Shown here in pieces: positions 30,452 to 42,759 of a stretch of DNA of 64,000 bases. Below the pieces are notes generated by a model. It searched no databases. It was given only the letters and a program-made list of their open reading frames with translations, and had not been told where the DNA came from. The DNA is from a virus (Duplodnaviria > Caudoviricetes), in the IMG/VR virus record IMGVR_UViG_3300026522_000028, positions 12,181 to 76,180 of that record; one strand, written 5' to 3'. Position numbers and translations under genes: made by a program. Position 1 is the first letter of the stretch. Every line of letters starts with the position of its first letter.

Positions 30452-32059
30452 TCACAGGAAAGGATTCAGCATCTTCCTGCTATCTTTCTTCGGGTCTGTC
30501 CCGATGGAACCGAAGGAGAACGACGCGACCGACGTAGCGAGGAGCGGATGCAATGCCATTTCCAATGCGTCCGGCCCATCGTCGTGTCCCTTCGGGTAAT
30601 TTCGTAACTGACTAAGCAGGACATGTTGTCCCTGCTTGAATTTGATATGCCCCTGCCGAATATGCGGCACAAGGCTTTCGATGCGTGCAGCTTTGCTATC
30701 GCGGCCAGCATGGAAGACATCGAGCCAGTCGAGGTAGATGCCTGACTGAACCAAGTCTCGCTGCAAAGTGTTCGCGAAGAACTGCTGGAACTGATTGGTT
30801 TCACAGACAATCTTCGGATTGTCGGTGTAGTACCGAGCAATGATGTGCTTCGCATCGTCGAGCAATGATTCTGCTCTGCGCTTCTCCAAGCTGGCTTCGA
30901 GGACATAGAAGTAGTTGTCCTCGCATTGCGCCACCGCAATAATCGCCGAGAAGTCATTCGACCGCTTCCCTGCAATCGCAGGGTCAATCGCAATCGTCAT
31001 CTGCTTAATCGGCGGATGCTCGGTGTAGTAGTTGTTCTCCAGCCAGTCCGTTTTGAAGATACGAGTGGATTCCGTCTGCGGATCGTTCTGGAACTCCGAG
31101 GCAAACCCTTCCTCCGATGCAAGCCGACGCTCCATCAGATGCTCGTACATGTCAGGCCGCTGGTCGGGCCACAGGACTTCCGTGCCTGCCAGCATTTCCT
31201 CTTTGTGCTCCCGATAAAAATCCATCGCGTCAGCATAGGCATGATCGCCTCGCGTGAGATCGACCATGATGTCCTCCCACTCTTTCCAGAGGGGACTGTC
31301 GGAGAACTTGATGACCGCCTTGAATGTCTTGCGAACCCAGTTGGAATACTCGCCGTCGTTCAACATGTGGTAGAGCAGCGCATCGTAGGAGAGCACCGTG
31401 CCGATGTAGAAGAACGAGCAGTTCACGGAACCCATCGGCATCACGTCGCTATTGAACCATTGCTGGAGCGCTGCGTTCTGCGACGGGCTCGATACCTCGT
31501 CGGCTGTCTCCAAGTCATCGAGGATAACGAGGTCTGGTCGCGTAGAGTTGAACTTCATGCCGCGCATCTGTGCACCAGCGCCTTTCGACGAGATGAACGT
31601 TTTCGTCTGCGTGAAAATCTCGTTGCTATTCCAGATGTCATCATTCCGCATCCGTCCGAAGTCGCGAATGATTTTGTCGTTGAACTCCAGCTCGTTTCGG
31701 ATGTCAATGATGAACTGCTTCGCAACAGGGCCAGTCGCAGAGATGATGACGATGAACTTCTTATAGCCGTAGCACGCGCACCAGATTGGGAACGCGAAGC
31801 TCGTAATCGTAGACTTCGCATGACCGCGAGGTGCTGCAACGACGTTCCGCGTTTCCTCGTCGCTATGACGGAGAACAACGTCTTCAATCTTCTCGATGAG
31901 CCAGAGGTGGAATGGACTCCACGGGGAGGGAAAGGATTCTGCGAGGTAATATTCACAGAACCTCTTGAAGTCCGTCGCGCAAACATCGCGCATGCTCTGT
32001 GCTTCACCATCGTTCTTCCGCAGCCTGCCGCCGAAGATTTGCTTCATTGCATTTGCCAC
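30452..32059 (-). CDS. terL: Terminase large subunit
   Basis: APRGHAKST Walker A, VILDDLE Walker B, IAIDPA..DFSA and HDDGPDAL nuclease motifs; GTG start after RBS. Confidence 0.93.
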   Translation of the reverse strand: MANAMKQIFGGRLRKNDGEAQSMRDVCATDFKRFCEYYLAESFPSPWSPFHLWLIEKIEDVVLRHSDEETRNVVAAPRGHAKSTITSFAFPIWCACYGYKKFIVIISATGPVAKQFIIDIRNELEFNDKIIRDFGRMRNDDIWNSNEIFTQTKTFISSKGAGAQMRGMKFNSTRPDLVILDDLETADEVSSPSQNAALQQWFNSDVMPMGSVNCSFFYIGTVLSYDALLYHMLNDGEYSNWVRKTFKAVIKFSDSPLWKEWEDIMVDLTRGDHAYADAMDFYREHKEEMLAGTEVLWPDQRPDMYEHLMERRLASEEGFASEFQNDPQTESTRIFKTDWLENNYYTEHPPIKQMTIAIDPAIAGKRSNDFSAIIAVAQCEDNYFYVLEASLEKRRAESLLDDAKHIIARYYTDNPKIVCETNQFQQFFANTLQRDLVQSGIYLDWLDVFHAGRDSKAARIESLVPHIRQGHIKFKQGQHVLLSQLRNYPKGHDDGPDALEMALHPLLATSVASFSFGSIGTDPKKDSRKMLNPFL

Positions 32060-32061
32060 GG

Positions 32062-33018
32062 TTATCTCTTCCCTTCGATGTGATACTTGTTGATGTGATT
32101 CTCGATACGATGGAGCCGCTTGTTGTCGAAGAACTTCTGCTTCTTGTACCACGGCCTCCACGGGTTCGTCTCCTTGCTCCCGTTGCACCGCGCACAGGTC
32201 GGCACGATGTTCTCAACGAGATCGACGCGCCCCGGAGCTTTCTTGCTAAGTTCCGATTTCGCAATGACATGCTCGGCAATCAGCGGCGTATCCTTCGCAC
32301 CGCAGTACGCGCAGGCATCATCGAACTCATGCTTCGTCCGCTCCCATTCCGTGTCATTCGTGAACACGCCATTGAGCGATACCCAGTAACCAGCGCGGCT
32401 ACGCACAATCGTATGCGTCTCCACGCCGACCACGAACTCCTGCATGACTTCCAGCGGGATATGCTGGAGCAGCCAGTCTTTGACCGTGATATGCAAGTTG
32501 CGTGCGTAGGGAACGCAGATGCCATACCATTCGCCGAGCGCATCGTAGAAGTCCCGAGCACGACTGCCGGGGACGGCTGCGATGAACCGCGTCTTCAAGT
32601 TCTCGAAGGTGTAGCTCGGATTGATGTACGGTTTCACGATGCCAGATTCTTTGAGCATCCGTTCGAGCCCGTCGATCCGTTCGTTCAGCCGCAGCTCGTA
32701 CCGACCGTCCCGAGAGATTGTCGGGAGTACGTCGTGAGCAATCCACCGCTGATACTTCTGGGAGAACTCCTTGCGACTGCCGAGGATCAATCGATAGACC
32801 CCAGCCTCGCTTACCGCGTTCACTTTCTGCTTGCCACCCGATGTCTCTACGGTGACTGTTGTATGCTCGTCATCGTCGAGCCGCGCCATAGCATTCCTGC
32901 CGCGCTTGATACCGAGGGCATCGCAGATGTCATTCGCTACATACCATTTGCATCCACCATCTTTCACGATGCGGACGTTGCTGAACACGCCGCCATCGAA
33001 AGTCAGAAGTTCGTTCAA
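32062..33018 (-). CDS. Bro-N domain fused to an HNH endonuclease
   Basis: WYVANDICDALG...VSEAGVYRLILGSRK (Bro-N); CAYCG...EHVIA...NIVPTCARCNGSK (HNH); TTG start. Confidence 0.85.
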   Translation of the reverse strand: MNELLTFDGGVFSNVRIVKDGGCKWYVANDICDALGIKRGRNAMARLDDDEHTTVTVETSGGKQKVNAVSEAGVYRLILGSRKEFSQKYQRWIAHDVLPTISRDGRYELRLNERIDGLERMLKESGIVKPYINPSYTFENLKTRFIAAVPGSRARDFYDALGEWYGICVPYARNLHITVKDWLLQHIPLEVMQEFVVGVETHTIVRSRAGYWVSLNGVFTNDTEWERTKHEFDDACAYCGAKDTPLIAEHVIAKSELSKKAPGRVDLVENIVPTCARCNGSKETNPWRPWYKKQKFFDNKRLHRIENHINKYHIEGKR

Positions 33019-34052: not shown

Positions 34053-34128
34053 TGGTCGCTCGGGGAGGCATCGAACCCCCGACGTAAAGATTATGATTCT
34101 CCTGTTCTTCCAACTGAACTACCGAGCG
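34053..34128 (-). tRNA. tRNA with CAT anticodon (elongator Met or Ile2)
   Basis: Full 76-nt cloverleaf with encoded CCA; C1:G72 is paired, so not initiator-type. Confidence 0.9.
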
Positions 34129-34131
34129 ATA

Positions 34132-34218
34132 TGGTCGGTGGGGTAGGGTTCGAACCTACGATGTATCTTGCGTCTCGGATTTACAGTCCGATGCTTTCAC
34201 CACTCAGCTCACCCACCG
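34132..34218 (-). tRNA. tRNA-Tyr(GTA)
   Basis: TCGGA-CTGTAAA-TCCGA anticodon arm, long variable arm, GGTTCGAAC T-loop, CCA end. Confidence 0.92.
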
Positions 34219-35003: not shown

Positions 35004-35671
35004 CATATAATCTATGTTATCTATGTCCGTCCGTGTTTTTACCCCGAATCGACGCTGATGCCCCTAGCGTTCGTTCTGAGCGCGTTGGAGTACCTACGCT
35101 ACCAAGTTATCCTATGAAGCCTCCGAAGGGGCTTAGACGCGAAGCCAGAGCGGTCAGAGAGCCTGCAATTAACATCAATGTTATTCAATGATTGTCAATG
35201 GTGTCGATGTTATTTTTTTTGTTGCGGAGAAATTTTCATGGATGTTGCCGATGGATTCTATGATAACCTATGGCTATTCATTTCCGCACCCCATGTATCA
35301 TGCACGCGATCACCCGCGAACCCGCATGGTTCCTACGTTCCCAGCATTTTCCTGCGCTGCGCTGCGCAGATCGAACTTTGTTTTCGGTGTAACAATCCGC
35401 GCTGAAGCCGCGTAATTACTGGGGTTGTGCGGTGTTACGGATGACAGGGGTATTGCTGCGGATGGCTATGAAATAATTTTGGACGGCGCGGGTACGGAGC
35501 TGAGACTATGCCGGGCGCGCGCTGCGGGGCGTTCCGCGTCGGGCACGGCGTTTCACACCCTCCCAAATACATACATGCGGAAACGCTGTGAGGCTAGGAA
35601 TGGCGCGGCTTGACGGCATGCATGCATAACATTATGGCTATAACGTTGCCTACTAAGAAAGGCTTTTGCAG

Positions 35672-35714
35672 GCGCGTATGCGTATACGTGCGCGCGCGCG
35701 CGCGTGCGCGTGTG
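35672..35714. repeat. 43-bp perfect purine-pyrimidine alternation (Z-DNA prone)
   Basis: gcgcgtatgcgtatacgtgcgcgcgcgcgcgcgtgcgcgtgtg. Confidence 0.8.
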
Positions 35715-35954
35715 GTGGCCGTCCGCAGCCGACAACGCTGTCAAGGTAAAATACTTGACAGGCCGTTGGTACATCTGCGAACGATAACTTTTGGCTATAC
35801 AATCCATAGCCTCATCCTATGGCATCCCTATTAATCCCTAGATAGAAGGAAAAACTTTTTTTCAGCTCCGGAAAACCGCCGCGAAGCCAATAACGACGCG
35901 GGCTGACAGCGTTTCAGATCGATCCGTTCGGCATCTGCTGCGCGAAATTCCCTG

Positions 35955-35983
35955 TTGACAACGAACCGATAAAGCGCTATACT
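35955..35983 (+). promoter_or_regulatory. Early sigma-A promoter P1
   Basis: TTGACA-acgaaccgataaagcgc-TATACT. Confidence 0.9.
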
Positions 35984-36073
35984 GTGAAGCGTCCAAAGGG
36001 AACAGGGACAACGCAAGACAGCGACCCTGCGCCCGTCGCGAATCGTCGAAATTCGACAGGACGAAAAAAGTCC

Positions 36074-36102
36074 TTGACAACGAACCGATAAAGCGATATA
36101 AT
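36074..36102 (+). promoter_or_regulatory. Early sigma-A promoter P2
   Basis: A-tract then TTGACA-acgaaccgataaagcga-TATAAT. Confidence 0.92.
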
Positions 36103-36265
36103 GGGGGCACCGAAAGGCAAAGAGGTCCATCCTACGAGACGACTCGGCTACGTGCATTGATTTGACACGCGAGTACGTCGTGGGGGGCGACGCTAAAACT
36201 CTATGCTTTTCATAGCTGCCATTGTACGCTCGTAGTCTGTCCATTGTCGCCGACGAAAAAAGTCC

Positions 36266-36294
36266 TTGACAACGAACCGATAAAGCGATATAAT
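36266..36294 (+). promoter_or_regulatory. Early sigma-A promoter P3
   Basis: Identical to P2. Confidence 0.92.
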
Positions 36295-36500
36295 GGGGAC
36301 ACAAGGTTGAAGGCCGCGAGGCCAATGACCTAACATTACACCGACGTTGGTAGCATCCCGAACAAGATTGCTACATGCCGTATTACTCTCTATGTAGAGG
36401 TCAGACTCTACCATCCAAACACGCGAGAAGCAACGCGTTATAACTCCCTGTCGCTATGTAACAGATGGCGCTCGTCATTGATGGCATAGGCAGACACGTA

Positions 36501-36517
36501 GTCCTTTGAAAACTGAA
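36501..36517 (+). promoter_or_regulatory. Firmicute rrn-type boxA-like element
   Basis: GTCCTTTGAAAACTGAA compared with rrn leader GTTCTTTGAAAACT. Confidence 0.6.
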
Positions 36518-36742
36518 GAAGTGTGTCCCAAAGCCTCCCCATAGCAGGCCCGCAAGAATCCTCTGTTTTGAACGGATACCACTATGGAAGACATGAAACA
36601 ATGCAAGCGCCGTGGGAAGGTGCGTAGCAGACGAAGGTCTGTGAGGTATACCGCACGATGTAGATGCTTTGGGTAGTGAGCACAAAATTCCTCTCCTGTA
36701 AAAAATTCCGTGACGAGCGCGGGCAACACCGTGCTCATCATG

Positions 36743-36781
36743 GGAGGAACTAGGTAGCACCTAGGGACTTCCAATTTTTTT
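36743..36781 (+). terminator. Intrinsic terminator ending the early leader
   Basis: GGAGG-aa-CTAGG-tagca-CCTAG-gga-CTTCC followed by aaTTTTTTT. Confidence 0.6.
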
Positions 36782-36837
36782 GCAAGTGTGATAACATATT
36801 TGTTATTGCAGTAACGGAATTACTAGGAGGAATAACT

Positions 36838-37068
36838 ATGAACGCCAGTATTGAAAGACTGCACCGCATCGAACGCGAAGTAACATTGGCAGGTAAAGAA
36901 ATCCTGTCGATTCGCTGCGACGCCCTCGGGTATCGTGTGCTGGAGTACGACGAGAAGAACGTCTGCACCCCCTACGTGGTTCACGCGTGGCTCCCGGGGA
37001 CTGGGCTCTTCGCAGGTCGATACTTCGAACGCAAAGAAGGCGCGGTGGCCGAGTTCGACCGTCATTGA
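36838..37068 (+). CDS. Early hypothetical protein
   Basis: AGGAGG RBS; 76 aa. Confidence 0.75.
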   Translation: MNASIERLHRIEREVTLAGKEILSIRCDALGYRVLEYDEKNVCTPYVVHAWLPGTGLFAGRYFERKEGAVAEFDRH

Positions 37069-37127
37069 CAGTAACGGCGGCATGATGATTCCCATCGTGT
37101 CGCTGGTAGTGGCAATGACGCCACAGG
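37069..37127 (+). repeat. Two-hairpin intergenic motif, copy A
   Basis: CAGTAA-CGGCGGCATGATG/CATCGTGTCGCTG-GTA-GTGGC-aatgac-GCCAC-AGG. Confidence 0.8.
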
Positions 37128-37147
37128 AACAACAGGAGGAATAAGCT

Positions 37148-37438
37148 ATGATGACATCTGTAATCGTCGATTATCGCGGAATGAACCATGAAACGGCTAT
37201 CGAATACAAATGGGTGTTGCGCGATATCGAAGCGGAGCAAGTGGAAATCCCGCATCTAATCCGCGAGGACAAAGAGCAGGGCATGACCTACGACGAGACG
37301 CTGGAAGACCTGCGGACCGCTCTCGTGCTTGACATGAATGACTGTGTTGAGAGCGACTACATCCGCGAGCTTCTGGGATGCCTTGACATCGACTTCCATG
37401 CCATCGCCGAAAGACTGATGGAAAACTATTGGAATTGA
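37148..37438 (+). CDS. Early acidic hypothetical protein
   Basis: AGGAGG RBS; 96 aa, D/E rich. Confidence 0.75.
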   Translation: MMTSVIVDYRGMNHETAIEYKWVLRDIEAEQVEIPHLIREDKEQGMTYDETLEDLRTALVLDMNDCVESDYIRELLGCLDIDFHAIAERLMENYWN

Positions 37439-37493
37439 TAGTGGCAGCGGCAAGGCAACGTCTTGCCGTTGGTAGTGTCAATCCCGACACAGG
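37439..37493 (+). repeat. Two-hairpin intergenic motif, copy B
   Basis: TAGTGG-CAGCGGCAAGGC/GTCTTGCCGTTG-GTA-GTGTC-aatccc-GACAC-AGG. Confidence 0.8.
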
Positions 37494-37512
37494 ATTAACA
37501 GGAGGAATTACC

Positions 37513-37731
37513 ATGACAGTACAGGGAATCGTTGCAACGTCCGCATTCGGCGGGCTCGAAGTTCTTGACATCGAGTACGGCCCGGAGGATCGCGTCGTGT
37601 ACCGCTGGTGCATCGACGGCAAAGAGGGGCGCATCTGCCGCGCAAAAATCCGTGATGATGTCGGTGGCCTTCCGTATTTCAAAACGCGGGGGCAGACGGT
37701 TTTCATGGATGACGTTCTCGCAGCACTCTGA
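37513..37731 (+). CDS. Early hypothetical protein
   Basis: AGGAGG RBS; MTVQGIVATSAFGGLEVLDIEYG. Confidence 0.75.
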   Translation: MTVQGIVATSAFGGLEVLDIEYGPEDRVVYRWCIDGKEGRICRAKIRDDVGGLPYFKTRGQTVFMDDVLAAL

Positions 37732-37738
37732 AAATCCG

Positions 37739-37796
37739 CAGTAATCTAGGCACGACAAGGAAGTCGTGTCTAGGGTAGTGGGGATTTTCCCACAGG
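37739..37796 (+). repeat. Two-hairpin intergenic motif, copy C
   Basis: CAGTAAT-CTAGGCACGAC/GTCGTGTCTAG-GGTA-GTGGG-gatttt-CCCAC-AGG. Confidence 0.85.
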
Positions 37797-37817
37797 AAAA
37801 GACAGGAGGAATTTACT

Positions 37818-37859
37818 ATGAGGCATCTAGAACGTCCCCCGCCGCCGCCTACATATTAA
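37818..37859 (+). CDS. Polyproline sORF MRHLERPPPPPTY
   Basis: CAGGAG RBS identical in type to those of neighbouring genes. Confidence 0.45.
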   Translation: MRHLERPPPPPTY

Positions 37860-37933
37860 TTTACGTATTATTGTAGGTGTACATGGAGGAAATGGAAATG
37901 CATTGGCGATAGTAGAGAATACGTAGTCGAATA

Positions 37934-38006
37934 GCCGAAACGACCGTTGGATGCATACAACGGTTGTCTGTCGGGAATGACCCCCCGGCACCGATGAGGC
38001 AGGTCA
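37934..38006 (+). ncRNA. Type II hammerhead ribozyme (U4C core variant)
   Basis: GCC-GAAA-C, stem III GACCGTTG/CAACGGTT, GUC site, stem I TGTCGGG/CCCGGCA, CCGATGA-GGC, loop I TGACC pairs with the 3' GGTCA. Confidence 0.88.
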
Positions 38007-38034
38007 GCCTAGGGAAAAGACAGGAGGAATTACC

Positions 38035-38346
38035 ATGAGACTGAAAACCGTTGAAAAGCTCATCAAGTACGCCGACATTCGCAAGGGTAGCGGCACGACA
38101 CTCGGGAACCATTGGGTATCGGTCGGTTCCCTGAAGTTGAGCGTAACCTTCGGATACCATTCGACGGCAATCGCCCGGGTCTTGTTCAATCACAAGACCA
38201 TCGAGTTCGACAATGGAGGCTGGGACACTTCGAGCACCAACACGGCTCTTCGCGACTACTTCGGCGAATACGTCGTAAAGCGCGGCTACAAAGACGTGAC
38301 GGACTACACGAAGCATGCAGACATTCGTCGTCGGCTCTATCGGTGA
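38035..38346 (+). CDS. Early hypothetical protein
   Basis: RBS; GYHSTAIA..DNGGWDTSST. Confidence 0.75.
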   Translation: MRLKTVEKLIKYADIRKGSGTTLGNHWVSVGSLKLSVTFGYHSTAIARVLFNHKTIEFDNGGWDTSSTNTALRDYFGEYVVKRGYKDVTDYTKHADIRRRLYR

Positions 38347-38383
38347 GGGACATTTTCCCACAGGAACAACAGGAGGAATAACC

Positions 38384-38794
38384 ATGAAAAACGCAACGGT
38401 CACATTCAAGAACGGCAAGACGCTGGGTATCTACGACGGCAAATTCTTCGGCGTCGAGGTATCGACGGAGCCGTGCATGAAAGGGCAGCTGGACTACTAC
38501 GCCATGATTCACGGATTCTGCGACGCAATGATTTTGAACAATGAAATCATTCGCCATGCCGATGACTGGGAGGTGGTAAACGGCAGCGACTACGATGAGG
38601 AAACGGGGGAGTATTTCGAGGTATTCCAGTATTTCATCATCGACGGCAATGGCGCGGAGTATCTGGAGGAATACACGGATCAACTCGTGTACTATAGCGA
38701 ATCGCTGGACATGTATCTGCTCGGGGTGACGCACTGCGGAACCGCGTGGGACTGCGTAAACTCTGGGTACGAGGTAACGGCAGAAGCCGAATGA
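38384..38794 (+). CDS. Early acidic protein (possible DNA mimic)
   Basis: RBS; EVFQYFII...LDMYLLGVTHCGTAWD; very D/E rich. Confidence 0.75.
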   Translation: MKNATVTFKNGKTLGIYDGKFFGVEVSTEPCMKGQLDYYAMIHGFCDAMILNNEIIRHADDWEVVNGSDYDEETGEYFEVFQYFIIDGNGAEYLEEYTDQLVYYSESLDMYLLGVTHCGTAWDCVNSGYEVTAEAE

Positions 38795-38819
38795 CACTAG
38801 GGACACAGGAGGAATTACA

Positions 38820-39137
38820 ATGAGATTCTATGGACATTGCATGGAGGAAAACGGCTTCGATGTAATCCGTGATTTCCGCATGGGCAAATGGGAGATTGCC
38901 GTGTCGGAGCCGTACAAGAATTACAAGGGTGAACCGAAAATCACGGTGCTTGTCGGTGACGATTTCGGCGGTGACTACGTGCATTGGTGGCTCTTCAAGG
39001 ATTCCGATGGTATCCAGAAACAGCACATCAACTACACGCAGGCGTCCGACGCATACATGCCGCCGCCGTACATCTGCAGGAAAATCGCAGAAGTCTTCCA
39101 GCGCACCGCTGAGGAGTATGGGATTTTGGAGGGATAA
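38820..39137 (+). CDS. Early hypothetical protein
   Basis: ACAGGAGG RBS. Confidence 0.75.
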   Translation: MRFYGHCMEENGFDVIRDFRMGKWEIAVSEPYKNYKGEPKITVLVGDDFGGDYVHWWLFKDSDGIQKQHINYTQASDAYMPPPYICRKIAEVFQRTAEEYGILEG

Positions 39138-39139
39138 CA

Positions 39140-39397
39140 ATGGAGGCACGCATTTATGGACTGCTGGAAAATCGTATCTACGATTCGGCCATGAGTTACT
39201 TTGGCAAACTGATGGAGGCACGAGAACACCACACGGAGGTGAATGTGTATTGCTCTGGGAGAGCACAAGGAAAAGTGTTTGCACTCATTGATTTTGCGGT
39301 AGCCGCTGGGATGACCGAGGATTACGCCGCATTGCTTTACAGAAAAGCACGGAAATCATTCGCGGTTCAGCACAATATGAGCGAGGAGGATTTGTAA
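39140..39397 (+). CDS. Early hypothetical protein
   Basis: GGAGG RBS; coupled to the upstream gene. Confidence 0.7.
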   Translation: MEARIYGLLENRIYDSAMSYFGKLMEAREHHTEVNVYCSGRAQGKVFALIDFAVAAGMTEDYAALLYRKARKSFAVQHNMSEEDL

Positions 39398-39588
39398 TGG
39401 AAAATCTGAAAACAATCGCCGCATTCATCGTAGCCACCGCAGCGCGTCCATTCGTGTCGCGACGGTTCCCCGTGTACGACGAGGGAGGCGTGATGGTATC
39501 GACGTATTCGATAACGCCCCGATTCGTCTGGGTGAATCGGGGGATTGCGCTGGTGATGCTCGGCGTATTCGTCGGGATGCACATCTGA
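39397..39588 (+). CDS. Small membrane protein
   Basis: TAATG overlap; hydrophobic C-terminus. Confidence 0.6.
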   Translation: MENLKTIAAFIVATAARPFVSRRFPVYDEGGVMVSTYSITPRFVWVNRGIALVMLGVFVGMHI

Positions 39589-39595
39589 AAATCCG

Positions 39596-39650
39596 CAGTA
39601 ATCTGGGCGCGTCAAGGGACGTGCCTAGGCTAGTGGGGATTTTCCCACAG
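39596..39650 (+). repeat. Two-hairpin intergenic motif, copy D
   Basis: CAGTAAT-CTGGGCGCGTC/GACGTGCCTAG-GCTA-GTGGG-gatttt-CCCAC-AG. Confidence 0.85.
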
Positions 39651-39668
39651 AAATAGGGAGGTATATCC

Positions 39669-39845
39669 ATGAAATACAAAATGAATGTCAAAGAAATCCT
39701 GTCTCGCACCGTGGAAATCGAGGCCGATTCGTTGGAGGACGCGAATCGAAAGGTCCACCAGCTCTATGATGCAGAGGAAATCGTGCTGGACTCTTCGGAC
39801 TGGCAGGAGACAATCATCGATGAGGCAGAAGAAGCGGAGGAATAA
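39669..39845 (+). CDS. DpnD/PcfM-like protein (58 aa)
   Basis: MKYKMNVKEILSRTVEIEADSLEDANRKVHQLYDAEEIVLDSSDW. Confidence 0.7.
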   Translation: MKYKMNVKEILSRTVEIEADSLEDANRKVHQLYDAEEIVLDSSDWQETIIDEAEEAEE

Positions 39846-39848
39846 ACC

Positions 39849-40109
39849 ATGAAGCGCTATGATAACTGGTATGGTATCAAGGAGTTCGATTTCATCTACT
39901 ACAACGAATGGGAGGACCCGACGCTTGTATTCGATGGGACGTCAATTAACGTCCATGACATCGAAGACTATTTCTGGGAGGAATACCTAGAGGACGGCGG
40001 TGAAGACCAGAATTTCGATGCATTCGGCGAATACCTGCGGGATAATGCCGATGAAGTTCTGGAGGAAGCGCGGAGAATTGCCGCAATCACAAGGGAAGAG
40101 GAGGCATAA
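39849..40109 (+). CDS. Early acidic hypothetical protein
   Basis: RBS; strongly acidic, 86 aa. Confidence 0.75.
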   Translation: MKRYDNWYGIKEFDFIYYNEWEDPTLVFDGTSINVHDIEDYFWEEYLEDGGEDQNFDAFGEYLRDNADEVLEEARRIAAITREEEA

Positions 40110-40951: not shown

Positions 40952-40968
40952 CATTTTGCAAAAACTAC

Positions 40969-40997
40969 TTGACAATGACACGATAATCGTCTATAAT
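40969..40997 (+). promoter_or_regulatory. Early sigma-A promoter P4
   Basis: TTGACA-atgacacgataatcgtc-TATAAT; ACGAT-A-ATCGT palindrome in the spacer. Confidence 0.88.
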
Positions 40998-41073
40998 GAA
41001 ACCATCGAGAGGCGATAGGGACAACAAAGATATACGCAGACGATAACATCTATGTGAACGGAGGAACGGAACA

Positions 41074-42392: not shown

Positions 42393-42399
42393 GTGTCCG

Positions 42400-42454
42400 C
42401 AGTAATCTGGGCGCATCCGATGATGTGCCTAGGCTAGTGGGGATTCTCCCATAG
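42400..42454 (+). repeat. Two-hairpin intergenic motif, copy E
   Basis: CAGTAAT-CTGGGCGCATC/GATGTGCCTAG-GCTA-GTGGG-gattct-CCCAT-AG. Confidence 0.85.
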
Positions 42455-42501
42455 AGGTATAGAGGTATAACGCTATAGAGGTATGGAGGTATAGAGGTAT
42501 G
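42451..42501. repeat. 51-bp octamer array; inverted near-copy (49/51) of 33800-33850
   Basis: atagaggtatagaggtataacgctatagaggtatggaggtatagaggtatg. Confidence 0.88.
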
Positions 42502-42759
42502 AAAATGTATCTGATTCTCGTAGATGATTCGTCGAATTGCACGACAATGCAGGCCGCGTTTTCCACTAGGGAAAAGGCGCAGGAGTTCTTCGCGAAAGAG
42601 ATGGAAGACTACTGGCCGAAAGCAGAGTGGAACAACGGCAGCTATGACATCGACGGAAAGACCGCCGAGGAATGCATTGAGAAGCTGGAGTTCTATGACG
42701 CTGGGGACAATCATCTGTACGGCATGGAACTCGAAGTTGACTCTGGTAAATGGATGTAA
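42499..42759 (+). CDS. Early hypothetical protein
   Basis: ATG lies at the end of the octamer array. Confidence 0.7.
   Translation: MKMYLILVDDSSNCTTMQAAFSTREKAQEFFAKEMEDYWPKAEWNNGSYDIDGKTAEECIEKLEFYDAGDNHLYGMELEVDSGKWM

Follow-up and report, generated by a model that had tools for sequence, protein, structure and literature searches.

What does a hammerhead ribozyme do just ahead of an early phage gene, and is it still a ribozyme when position 4 of its catalytic core holds C in place of the consensus U? These questions arise at one site in the window, by which we mean the whole 64,000-nt stretch of DNA analysed here, part of a 76,180-bp virus record that is rated complete. A sequence-only reading of this site had proposed a type II hammerhead with a U4C core and predicted its cleavage position, and had taken its placement to suggest systematic processing of early mRNA.

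Hammerheads in phage DNA have been described before. Perreault et al. (2011) found that they flank genes in prophages and proposed that they process long phage transcripts into gene-length mRNAs, and intercistronic phage hammerhead arrays have already been published (PMC3088659). A 2019 review still treats the role of phage hammerheads as formally open and mRNA processing as unproven (PMC6765202). Because Perreault et al. left every core mutant out of their final alignments (PMC3088659), copies with C at position 4 (C4) are under-represented in the family model.

A type II hammerhead with a U4C core

The Rfam cmscan with Hammerhead_II (RF02276) matches the site over model positions 1-66 of 66, with 40.0 bits against a gathering score of 37 and an E-value of 1.2e-4 for the window. 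This bears out the sequence-only reading, all of whose listed features lie where it had placed them, as do its predicted cleavage position, after 37968, and the distance of 66 nt from there to the ATG at 38035 (Table 1). The sequence, the CM alignment and the minimum free energy (MFE) fold agree on the type II permutation, in which stems I and III are closed by loops and stem II is open. Stem III opens with the A15.1-U16.1 pair (A37940-U37967), GUC occupies 37966-37968, and the tertiary contact between loop I and the 3′ tail is a 5-bp pseudoknot, UGACC:GGUCA. All catalytic core bases other than position 4 are present (C37991, G37993, A37994, U37995, G37996, A37997, G37937, A37938, A37939, the A37940-U37967 pair and C37968), and the change from U4 to C is the sole blank within the core of the RF02276 alignment. 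The strict acceptance consensus of Perreault et al. (2011) has U at this position; the window has C37992.

When the 76 nt are folded in isolation, the MFE structure reproduces all three stems (−29.5 kcal/mol, z −2.1), and stems I and III are retained in a context of 321 nt. This is the lone hammerhead in the whole virus record, where an own-genome search finds it with an E-value of 3.2e-8. The hammerhead search of 14 control genomes gave no match, and when 20000-64000 was scanned with Rfam at a permissive cutoff (E up to 5), weak chance matches to other families appeared and no second hammerhead.

Table 1. Positions of the ribozyme and its parts, of its surroundings in the window and of related elements in the phage contig L048 (positions are those of the window unless L048 is named)
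Feature	Positions	Strand	Basis or remark
Whole type II hammerhead ribozyme	37933-38008	+	Rfam RF02276, full-length model match
Stem II 5′ strand, GCC, positions 11.3-11.1	37934-37936	+	pairs with 37998-38000
Core G12 A13 A14 (GAA)	37937-37939	+	invariant among 22 relatives
Stem III hairpin, 10 bp, loop GAUGCAUA	37940-37967	+	37940-37949 paired with 37958-37967
C17, predicted cleavage between 37968 and 37969	37968	+	place in CM alignment
Stem I hairpin, 7 bp, loop I AAUGACCC	37969-37990	+	37969-37975 paired with 37984-37990
Pseudoknot 5′ strand UGACC, loop I	37978-37982	+	pairs with 38002-38006
Core CCGAUGA (C3 C4 G5 A6 U7 G8 A9)	37991-37997	+	C37992 in place of consensus U4
Stem II 3′ strand, GGC, positions 10.1-10.3	37998-38000	+	sequence, covariation
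Pseudoknot 3′ strand GGUCA, 3′ tail	38002-38006	+	sequence, covariation
RBS AGGAGGA of downstream gene	38022-38028	+	sequence
Downstream small early gene, 103 aa	38035-38346	+	ORF; L048 homologue 58.7% aa identical
13-codon mini-ORF MRHLERPPPPPTY, full RBS	37819-37860	+	sequence
Three tandem sigma-70-type promoters	35955-36294 (at 35955, 36074, 36266)	+	TTGACA-17-TATAAT, 12/12, 12/12 and 11/12 matches
Terminase large subunit	30455-32188	-	window
Hairpin motif, copy next to ribozyme	37727-37811	+	repeat families D2, D5, D19; fold
Hairpin motif, further full copies	39584-39665, 42396-42469		repeat families D2, D5, D19
Hairpin motif, partial copies	37095-37142, 37461-37508, 38332-38379		
Hairpin motif, copy in L048	L048 8895-8840	-	
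Near-identical ribozyme 3′ halves	37965-38013 vs L048 10451-10403, 8235-8190, 9861-9820		
Canonical U4 type II hammerhead, well formed	L048 9238-9161	-	pattern and by eye; unreported at Rfam gathering threshold

Relatives preserve the pairing while changing the bases

We aligned 22 viral-contig sequences that share the tail CAGGUC, that is, the same pseudoknot between loop I and the 3′ tail (alignment A2). Hammerhead pair cells are paired in 96.1% of cases in these sequences, as opposed to 32-40% in controls with the partners shifted by one, two or three columns. Changes on both sides are seen in 13 of the 22 pairs, an extent of covariation reached by 0 of 500 shuffles. Double changes affect every one of the seven pairs of stem I and five of the seven counted pairs of stem III, where 99.3% of cells are paired; the middle pair of stem II is C-G in 10 sequences and U-A in the other 12. 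The pseudoknot that the sequence-only reading had described is conserved in 22 of 22 relatives: its 3′ strand was fixed by the search pattern and its 5′ strand left free, and 95.5% of the cells of this helix are paired. Nearly all of the sequences keep GACC in loop I, and the one with GGCC retains G-U pairing. All 22 relatives also show the same layout of stop codon, ribozyme, ribosome-binding site (RBS) and start codon.

Because the relatives covary, the match exceeds chance. On this comparative sequence evidence, the element is a genuine type II hammerhead, belonging to the phage subclass with pairing between loop I and the 3′ tail and carrying a natural U4C core.

The ribozyme lies in an early operon

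The window comes from a tailed phage whose structural genes are oriented leftwards. The three tandem promoters, which have the −35 and −10 sequences listed in Table 1, most likely drive the transcript that contains the ribozyme, and we found no terminator-like site on the + strand within 35500-40000, hence none between promoters and ribozyme. After the promoters follows a rightward array of small genes, each with an AGGAGGA ribosome-binding site, and the RBS block recurs throughout the operon (repeat families D3, D9 and D10). The site is a clear case, with just one ribozyme in an early operon that is well defined and preceded by consensus promoters. The product of the gene downstream of the ribozyme has no PHROG match, no viral-contig loci related to this protein were found, and blastn ('distant' mode) of 36500-39500 against phage records gave no match.

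Upstream of the ribozyme the arrangement is unusual. The place that a complete upstream gene takes in other phages is occupied by the mini-ORF, which has a full-strength RBS, encodes five prolines in a row and is separated from the ribozyme by a 72-nt spacer. Neither tblastx nor blastn found relatives of the spacer and mini-ORF (37812-37935) among all collected loci and the rest of the window. The mini-ORF could be what is left of a deleted gene, which is conjecture, or it could encode a leader peptide that causes stalling. The RBS block at 37795-37822 is repeated at 38013-38039, so that direct repeats flank the segment of mini-ORF and ribozyme. We considered that this segment might be a mobile cassette and rejected the idea: the same block precedes many genes of the operon, and the repeat is therefore not specific to such a cassette.

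Several other elements lie in this region. A fourth copy of the early-promoter block (TTGACA ... TATAAT; family D1) is found at 40955-41005, 63% identical to the reference copy, and its position inside the early array suggests that transcription restarts there. A run of the (CG)n type, alternating CG/CA, of about 25 nt (35680-35711; palindromes I17 and I18) precedes the early promoters. Five to six tandem 8-nt units, ATAGAGGT and variants, occupy 42451-42506 directly before the ORF start at 42499 (family D4) and resemble stacked SD-like GAGG repeats. Two adjacent tRNA genes (34056-34217, minus strand), which score 52.4 and 51.9 bits and of which one has a long variable arm, sit between the packaging genes and the promoter hub.

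A related phage carries four hammerheads of which three share the window's cassette

Related contigs were reached via the terminase, and one, L048, via DNA patterns built on the ribozyme. L048 is a 30.9-kb related phage contig, and the metagenome it comes from also yielded one of the terminase relatives. Its early operon holds four hammerheads, three with C4 and one with U4, each of which starts at the stop codon of a gene (TAAGCCGAAAC or TAGCCGAAAC) and stops roughly 10 nt short of the RBS that follows. The three C4 copies share the stem I, loop, core and tail of the window copy, with 95-98% identity over 42-49 nt. By comparison, the flanking homologous genes of the two phages are 62-67% identical in DNA and 45-59% in protein, and the 5′ halves of the ribozymes are 56-64% identical, with stem III rewritten in each copy and its pairing kept. 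In one L048 C4 copy, stem II is GUC/GAC in place of GCC/GGC, a double compensatory change. Because their 3′ halves are 95-98% identical, the four C4 copies of the window and L048 represent one cassette by descent, not four independent retentions of C4.

The fourth L048 copy has U4, a different stem I, and a stem III like that of one of the C4 copies; judged from this patchwork, it looks like the product of recombination within the ribozyme. One L048 copy joins the stem III of one lineage to the 3′ half of another. The conserved 3′ halves suggest gene conversion, or that the ribozymes act as recombination linkers between early genes. It is the 3′ half of the ribozyme with which, once the RNA is cut, the downstream mRNA would begin as its 5′ leader.

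In more distant relatives, whose terminases are 75-81% identical (L004, L005, L006 and L008), no hammerhead up to 10 kb from the terminase gene scores above the gathering score. This type of phage can therefore do without the element, which is not fixed in the group.

Hammerheads and a repeated hairpin occupy the same intergenic slots

Most intergenic gaps of the window's early array contain a repeated hairpin motif, and one such gap contains the hammerhead instead. One possible fold of the motif is a single long, irregular hairpin, with GAAAAUCC and GGGAUUUUC paired around an 11-bp inner stem; this fold is incompatible with the motif's small second hairpin. No Rfam family matches the motif at E up to 5.

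The sequence-only reading had placed the hammerhead in the same slot as this motif, and L048 confirms it, since the two phages differ at homologous positions. Gene 38035-38346 is followed in the window by a partial copy of the motif and its homologue in L048 by a hammerhead; gene 39397-39588 is followed by a full copy (39584-39665) and its L048 homologue again by a hammerhead. This positional swap suggests that both elements serve the same job, and the comparison of the two phage sequences directly supports a putative role as 'punctuation' between early genes. The further step that the reading had taken, to systematic processing of early mRNA, goes beyond this evidence. The motif's long hairpin would resemble the structures at which host double-strand RNases cleave the early transcripts of other phages.

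C at position 4 is a recurrent minority state

We then asked how often C occurs at position 4 elsewhere, using a stem-blind pattern in which only stem II and the core are fixed and stems I and III are free. With CCGAUGA as the core, this pattern gave 51 raw matches in IMG/VR. In 31 of them stems I and III each contain five or more contiguous pairs, a number far above the chance expectation. The CUGAUGA version of the pattern matches at least 120 loci, so U4 is much commoner than C4. Metagenome contigs add about ten further independent C4 copies, which show the same layout, and an uncultured Ruminiclostridium MAG adds two. The whole collection comprises 49 distinct, well-formed type II hammerheads with C4, which fall into about 15 groups by a crude sorting of their sequences. 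As members of this set were selected for at least five pairs, its stem statistics are circular for the first five pairs, and we drew on it solely to count sequences and to see how diverse the pair types are. Among 76 distinct hammerheads that were neighbours in loci chosen regardless of position 4, 72 have U, four have C (about 5%) and none has A or G. In nature, then, position 4 tolerates C and apparently neither A nor G.

Most C4 copies score below the Rfam gathering threshold, in keeping with the omission of core mutants by Perreault et al. (PMC3088659). Since the threshold misses them, surveys that demand a perfect core undercount phage hammerheads.

In many uncultivated phages, 4 to 10 type II hammerheads form an array that spans a few kb (10 in L010, 9 in L186, and others including L022, L025 and L192). 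These arrays mix U4 and C4 copies and also include U7, C7 and A7 variants.

We treat U4 as conserved rather than defining, because a natural U4C hammerhead is reported to be biologically active and because C4 occurs in 49 otherwise intact copies. The former is a viroid hammerhead (Ambros and Flores 1998), which, as summarised in PMC3088659, is much less active in vitro and supports infectivity. Read from these sequences, C4 would be a minority state that recurs and that the core tolerates, rather than the mark of a dead element.

Two other meanings of C4 have to be weighed. It may be a selected tuning variant, a slower, partial or condition-dependent cutter (responding, for example, to metal ions or pH) that would give fractional or timed processing of the transcript. 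C4 and U4 copies do lie side by side in 14 loci, the spread of the C4 cassette has reached no fewer than four sites across two phages, and another natural core variant, A6C in phage Bcep176 and its relatives, cleaves slowly and shifts the metal preference towards Mn2+ (PMC3088659; PMC7151607). Yet nothing outside position 4 separates C4 from U4 copies, in which pairs 1.1-2.1 and 1.2-2.2, stem lengths, loop size and tail nucleotide are distributed alike, and a frequency of about 5% over many scattered lineages is also expected of a mildly deleterious or nearly neutral polymorphism. We regard tuning as rather unlikely. Equally doubtful, in our judgement, is a fuller version in which C4 copies form a selected subclass, attenuated or condition-dependent in rate, metal-ion or pH response, that is mixed with fast U4 copies to set junction-specific processing ratios, the conserved 3′ halves perhaps serving also as recombination linkers that shuffle early genes.

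Alternatively, the element could be a true hammerhead by descent in which C4 disables, or nearly disables, catalysis, and which survives either as a structured, uncleaved RNA spacer, for instance one that insulates folding ahead of the RBS, or as a relic in decay. This would fit the prevalence of U4 in the unbiased sample, the considerable loss of activity in vitro that PMC3088659 gives for U4C, the low scores of most C4 copies and the loss of the upstream gene partner at the window site. A relic should decay at random, yet position 4 is only ever U or C, the C4 copies of all the roughly 15 groups retain perfect stems, the pseudoknot and every other core base, and in the cassette shared by the window and L048 stem II acquired its double compensatory change in a copy with C4; in addition, the viroid with U4C is, by the same account, still infectious. 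We think a disabled ribozyme unlikely.

Last, a chance resemblance in a GC-rich intergenic stretch, to which a score merely 3 bits above the gathering threshold and one deviating core position might lend some colour, is vanishingly improbable and is refuted computationally by the comparative data, namely the homologous copies with compensatory changes in a related phage, the strong covariation and the identical layout in dozens of phages, besides the low E-value in its own genome.

A model for processing of the early transcript

The explanation that we consider likely is that the element is a genuine U4C type II hammerhead that cuts the early polycistronic mRNA co-transcriptionally. According to this model, the ribozyme would be part of an early polycistronic transcript from the promoters at 35955-36294. 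Stems III and I would form during transcription, after which the 3-bp stem II and the pseudoknot would close the core and the chain would be cut after C37968. The upstream fragment would end in a 2′,3′-cyclic phosphate just past the 10-bp stem III hairpin, which would cap its 3′ end; the downstream mRNA would begin with a 5′-OH that lies in the hairpin of stem I and precedes the ATG at 38035 by 66 nt, and its RBS would be single-stranded. The downstream cistron would likely be uncoupled from the upstream one and gain a defined, protected 5′ end, with a possible effect on the stability and translation of the mRNA. The placement of the family at large is of the same kind, with an SD sequence and a start codon no more than 50 nt downstream in 208 of 276 well-formed copies.

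Two features of the window copy bear on this model. As U4 is conserved and a considerable drop of in vitro activity is reported for U4C, the copy could be slow. And since no real upstream gene abuts it, the mini-ORF and the 72-nt spacer taking that place unlike in most relatives, there may be little to uncouple.

Comparison with known systems

The closest counterparts are the type II hammerheads of phages and prophages (RF02276; PMC3088659), which share with the window copy the topology, a stem II of 2-3 bp, the pseudoknot between loop I and the 3′ tail, and a location between small phage genes, often with several copies per operon, and for which cutting of polycistronic mRNA was likewise proposed; the window copy differs in having C for U at position 4. 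Of the examples validated by experiment, the nearest are three type II hammerheads of Desulfovibrio vulgaris, near hypothetical or phage-like genes, for which the cyPhyRNA-seq report gives cleavage in vivo and in vitro (PMC8782182). These are described with consensus cores, whereas the window copy has C4. The viroid U4C hammerhead has, as described in PMC3088659, the identical single core substitution, but it belongs to a circular RNA replicon and processes multimeric genomes, while the window copy is a type II element in the mRNA of a DNA phage. The A6C variant of Bcep176 resembles the window copy as a natural single-base core variant of an intergenic phage hammerhead and differs in the position affected, 6 rather than 4.

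The kind of element, its topology, the pseudoknot and the arrangement between genes are thus already known from 2011, and U4C from the viroid. New are a member in a new phage lineage, the recurrence of C4 in about 5% of type II hammerheads without A4 or G4, and the interchange with a hairpin motif. This is an incremental addition that leaves the understanding of hammerheads unchanged.

At the level of the transcript, the proposed cutting is like the processing by host RNases at hairpins in other phage early transcripts, with the difference that here no host enzyme would be needed. A parallel also exists among engineered parts. In synthetic insulators of the RiboJ type, derived from a plant satellite RNA hammerhead, the ribozyme sits just upstream of the RBS, and its cleavage gives a uniform, short, hairpin-capped 5′ leader. 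The likeness of the window ribozyme to this part is an analogy of mechanism and not a relationship by descent.
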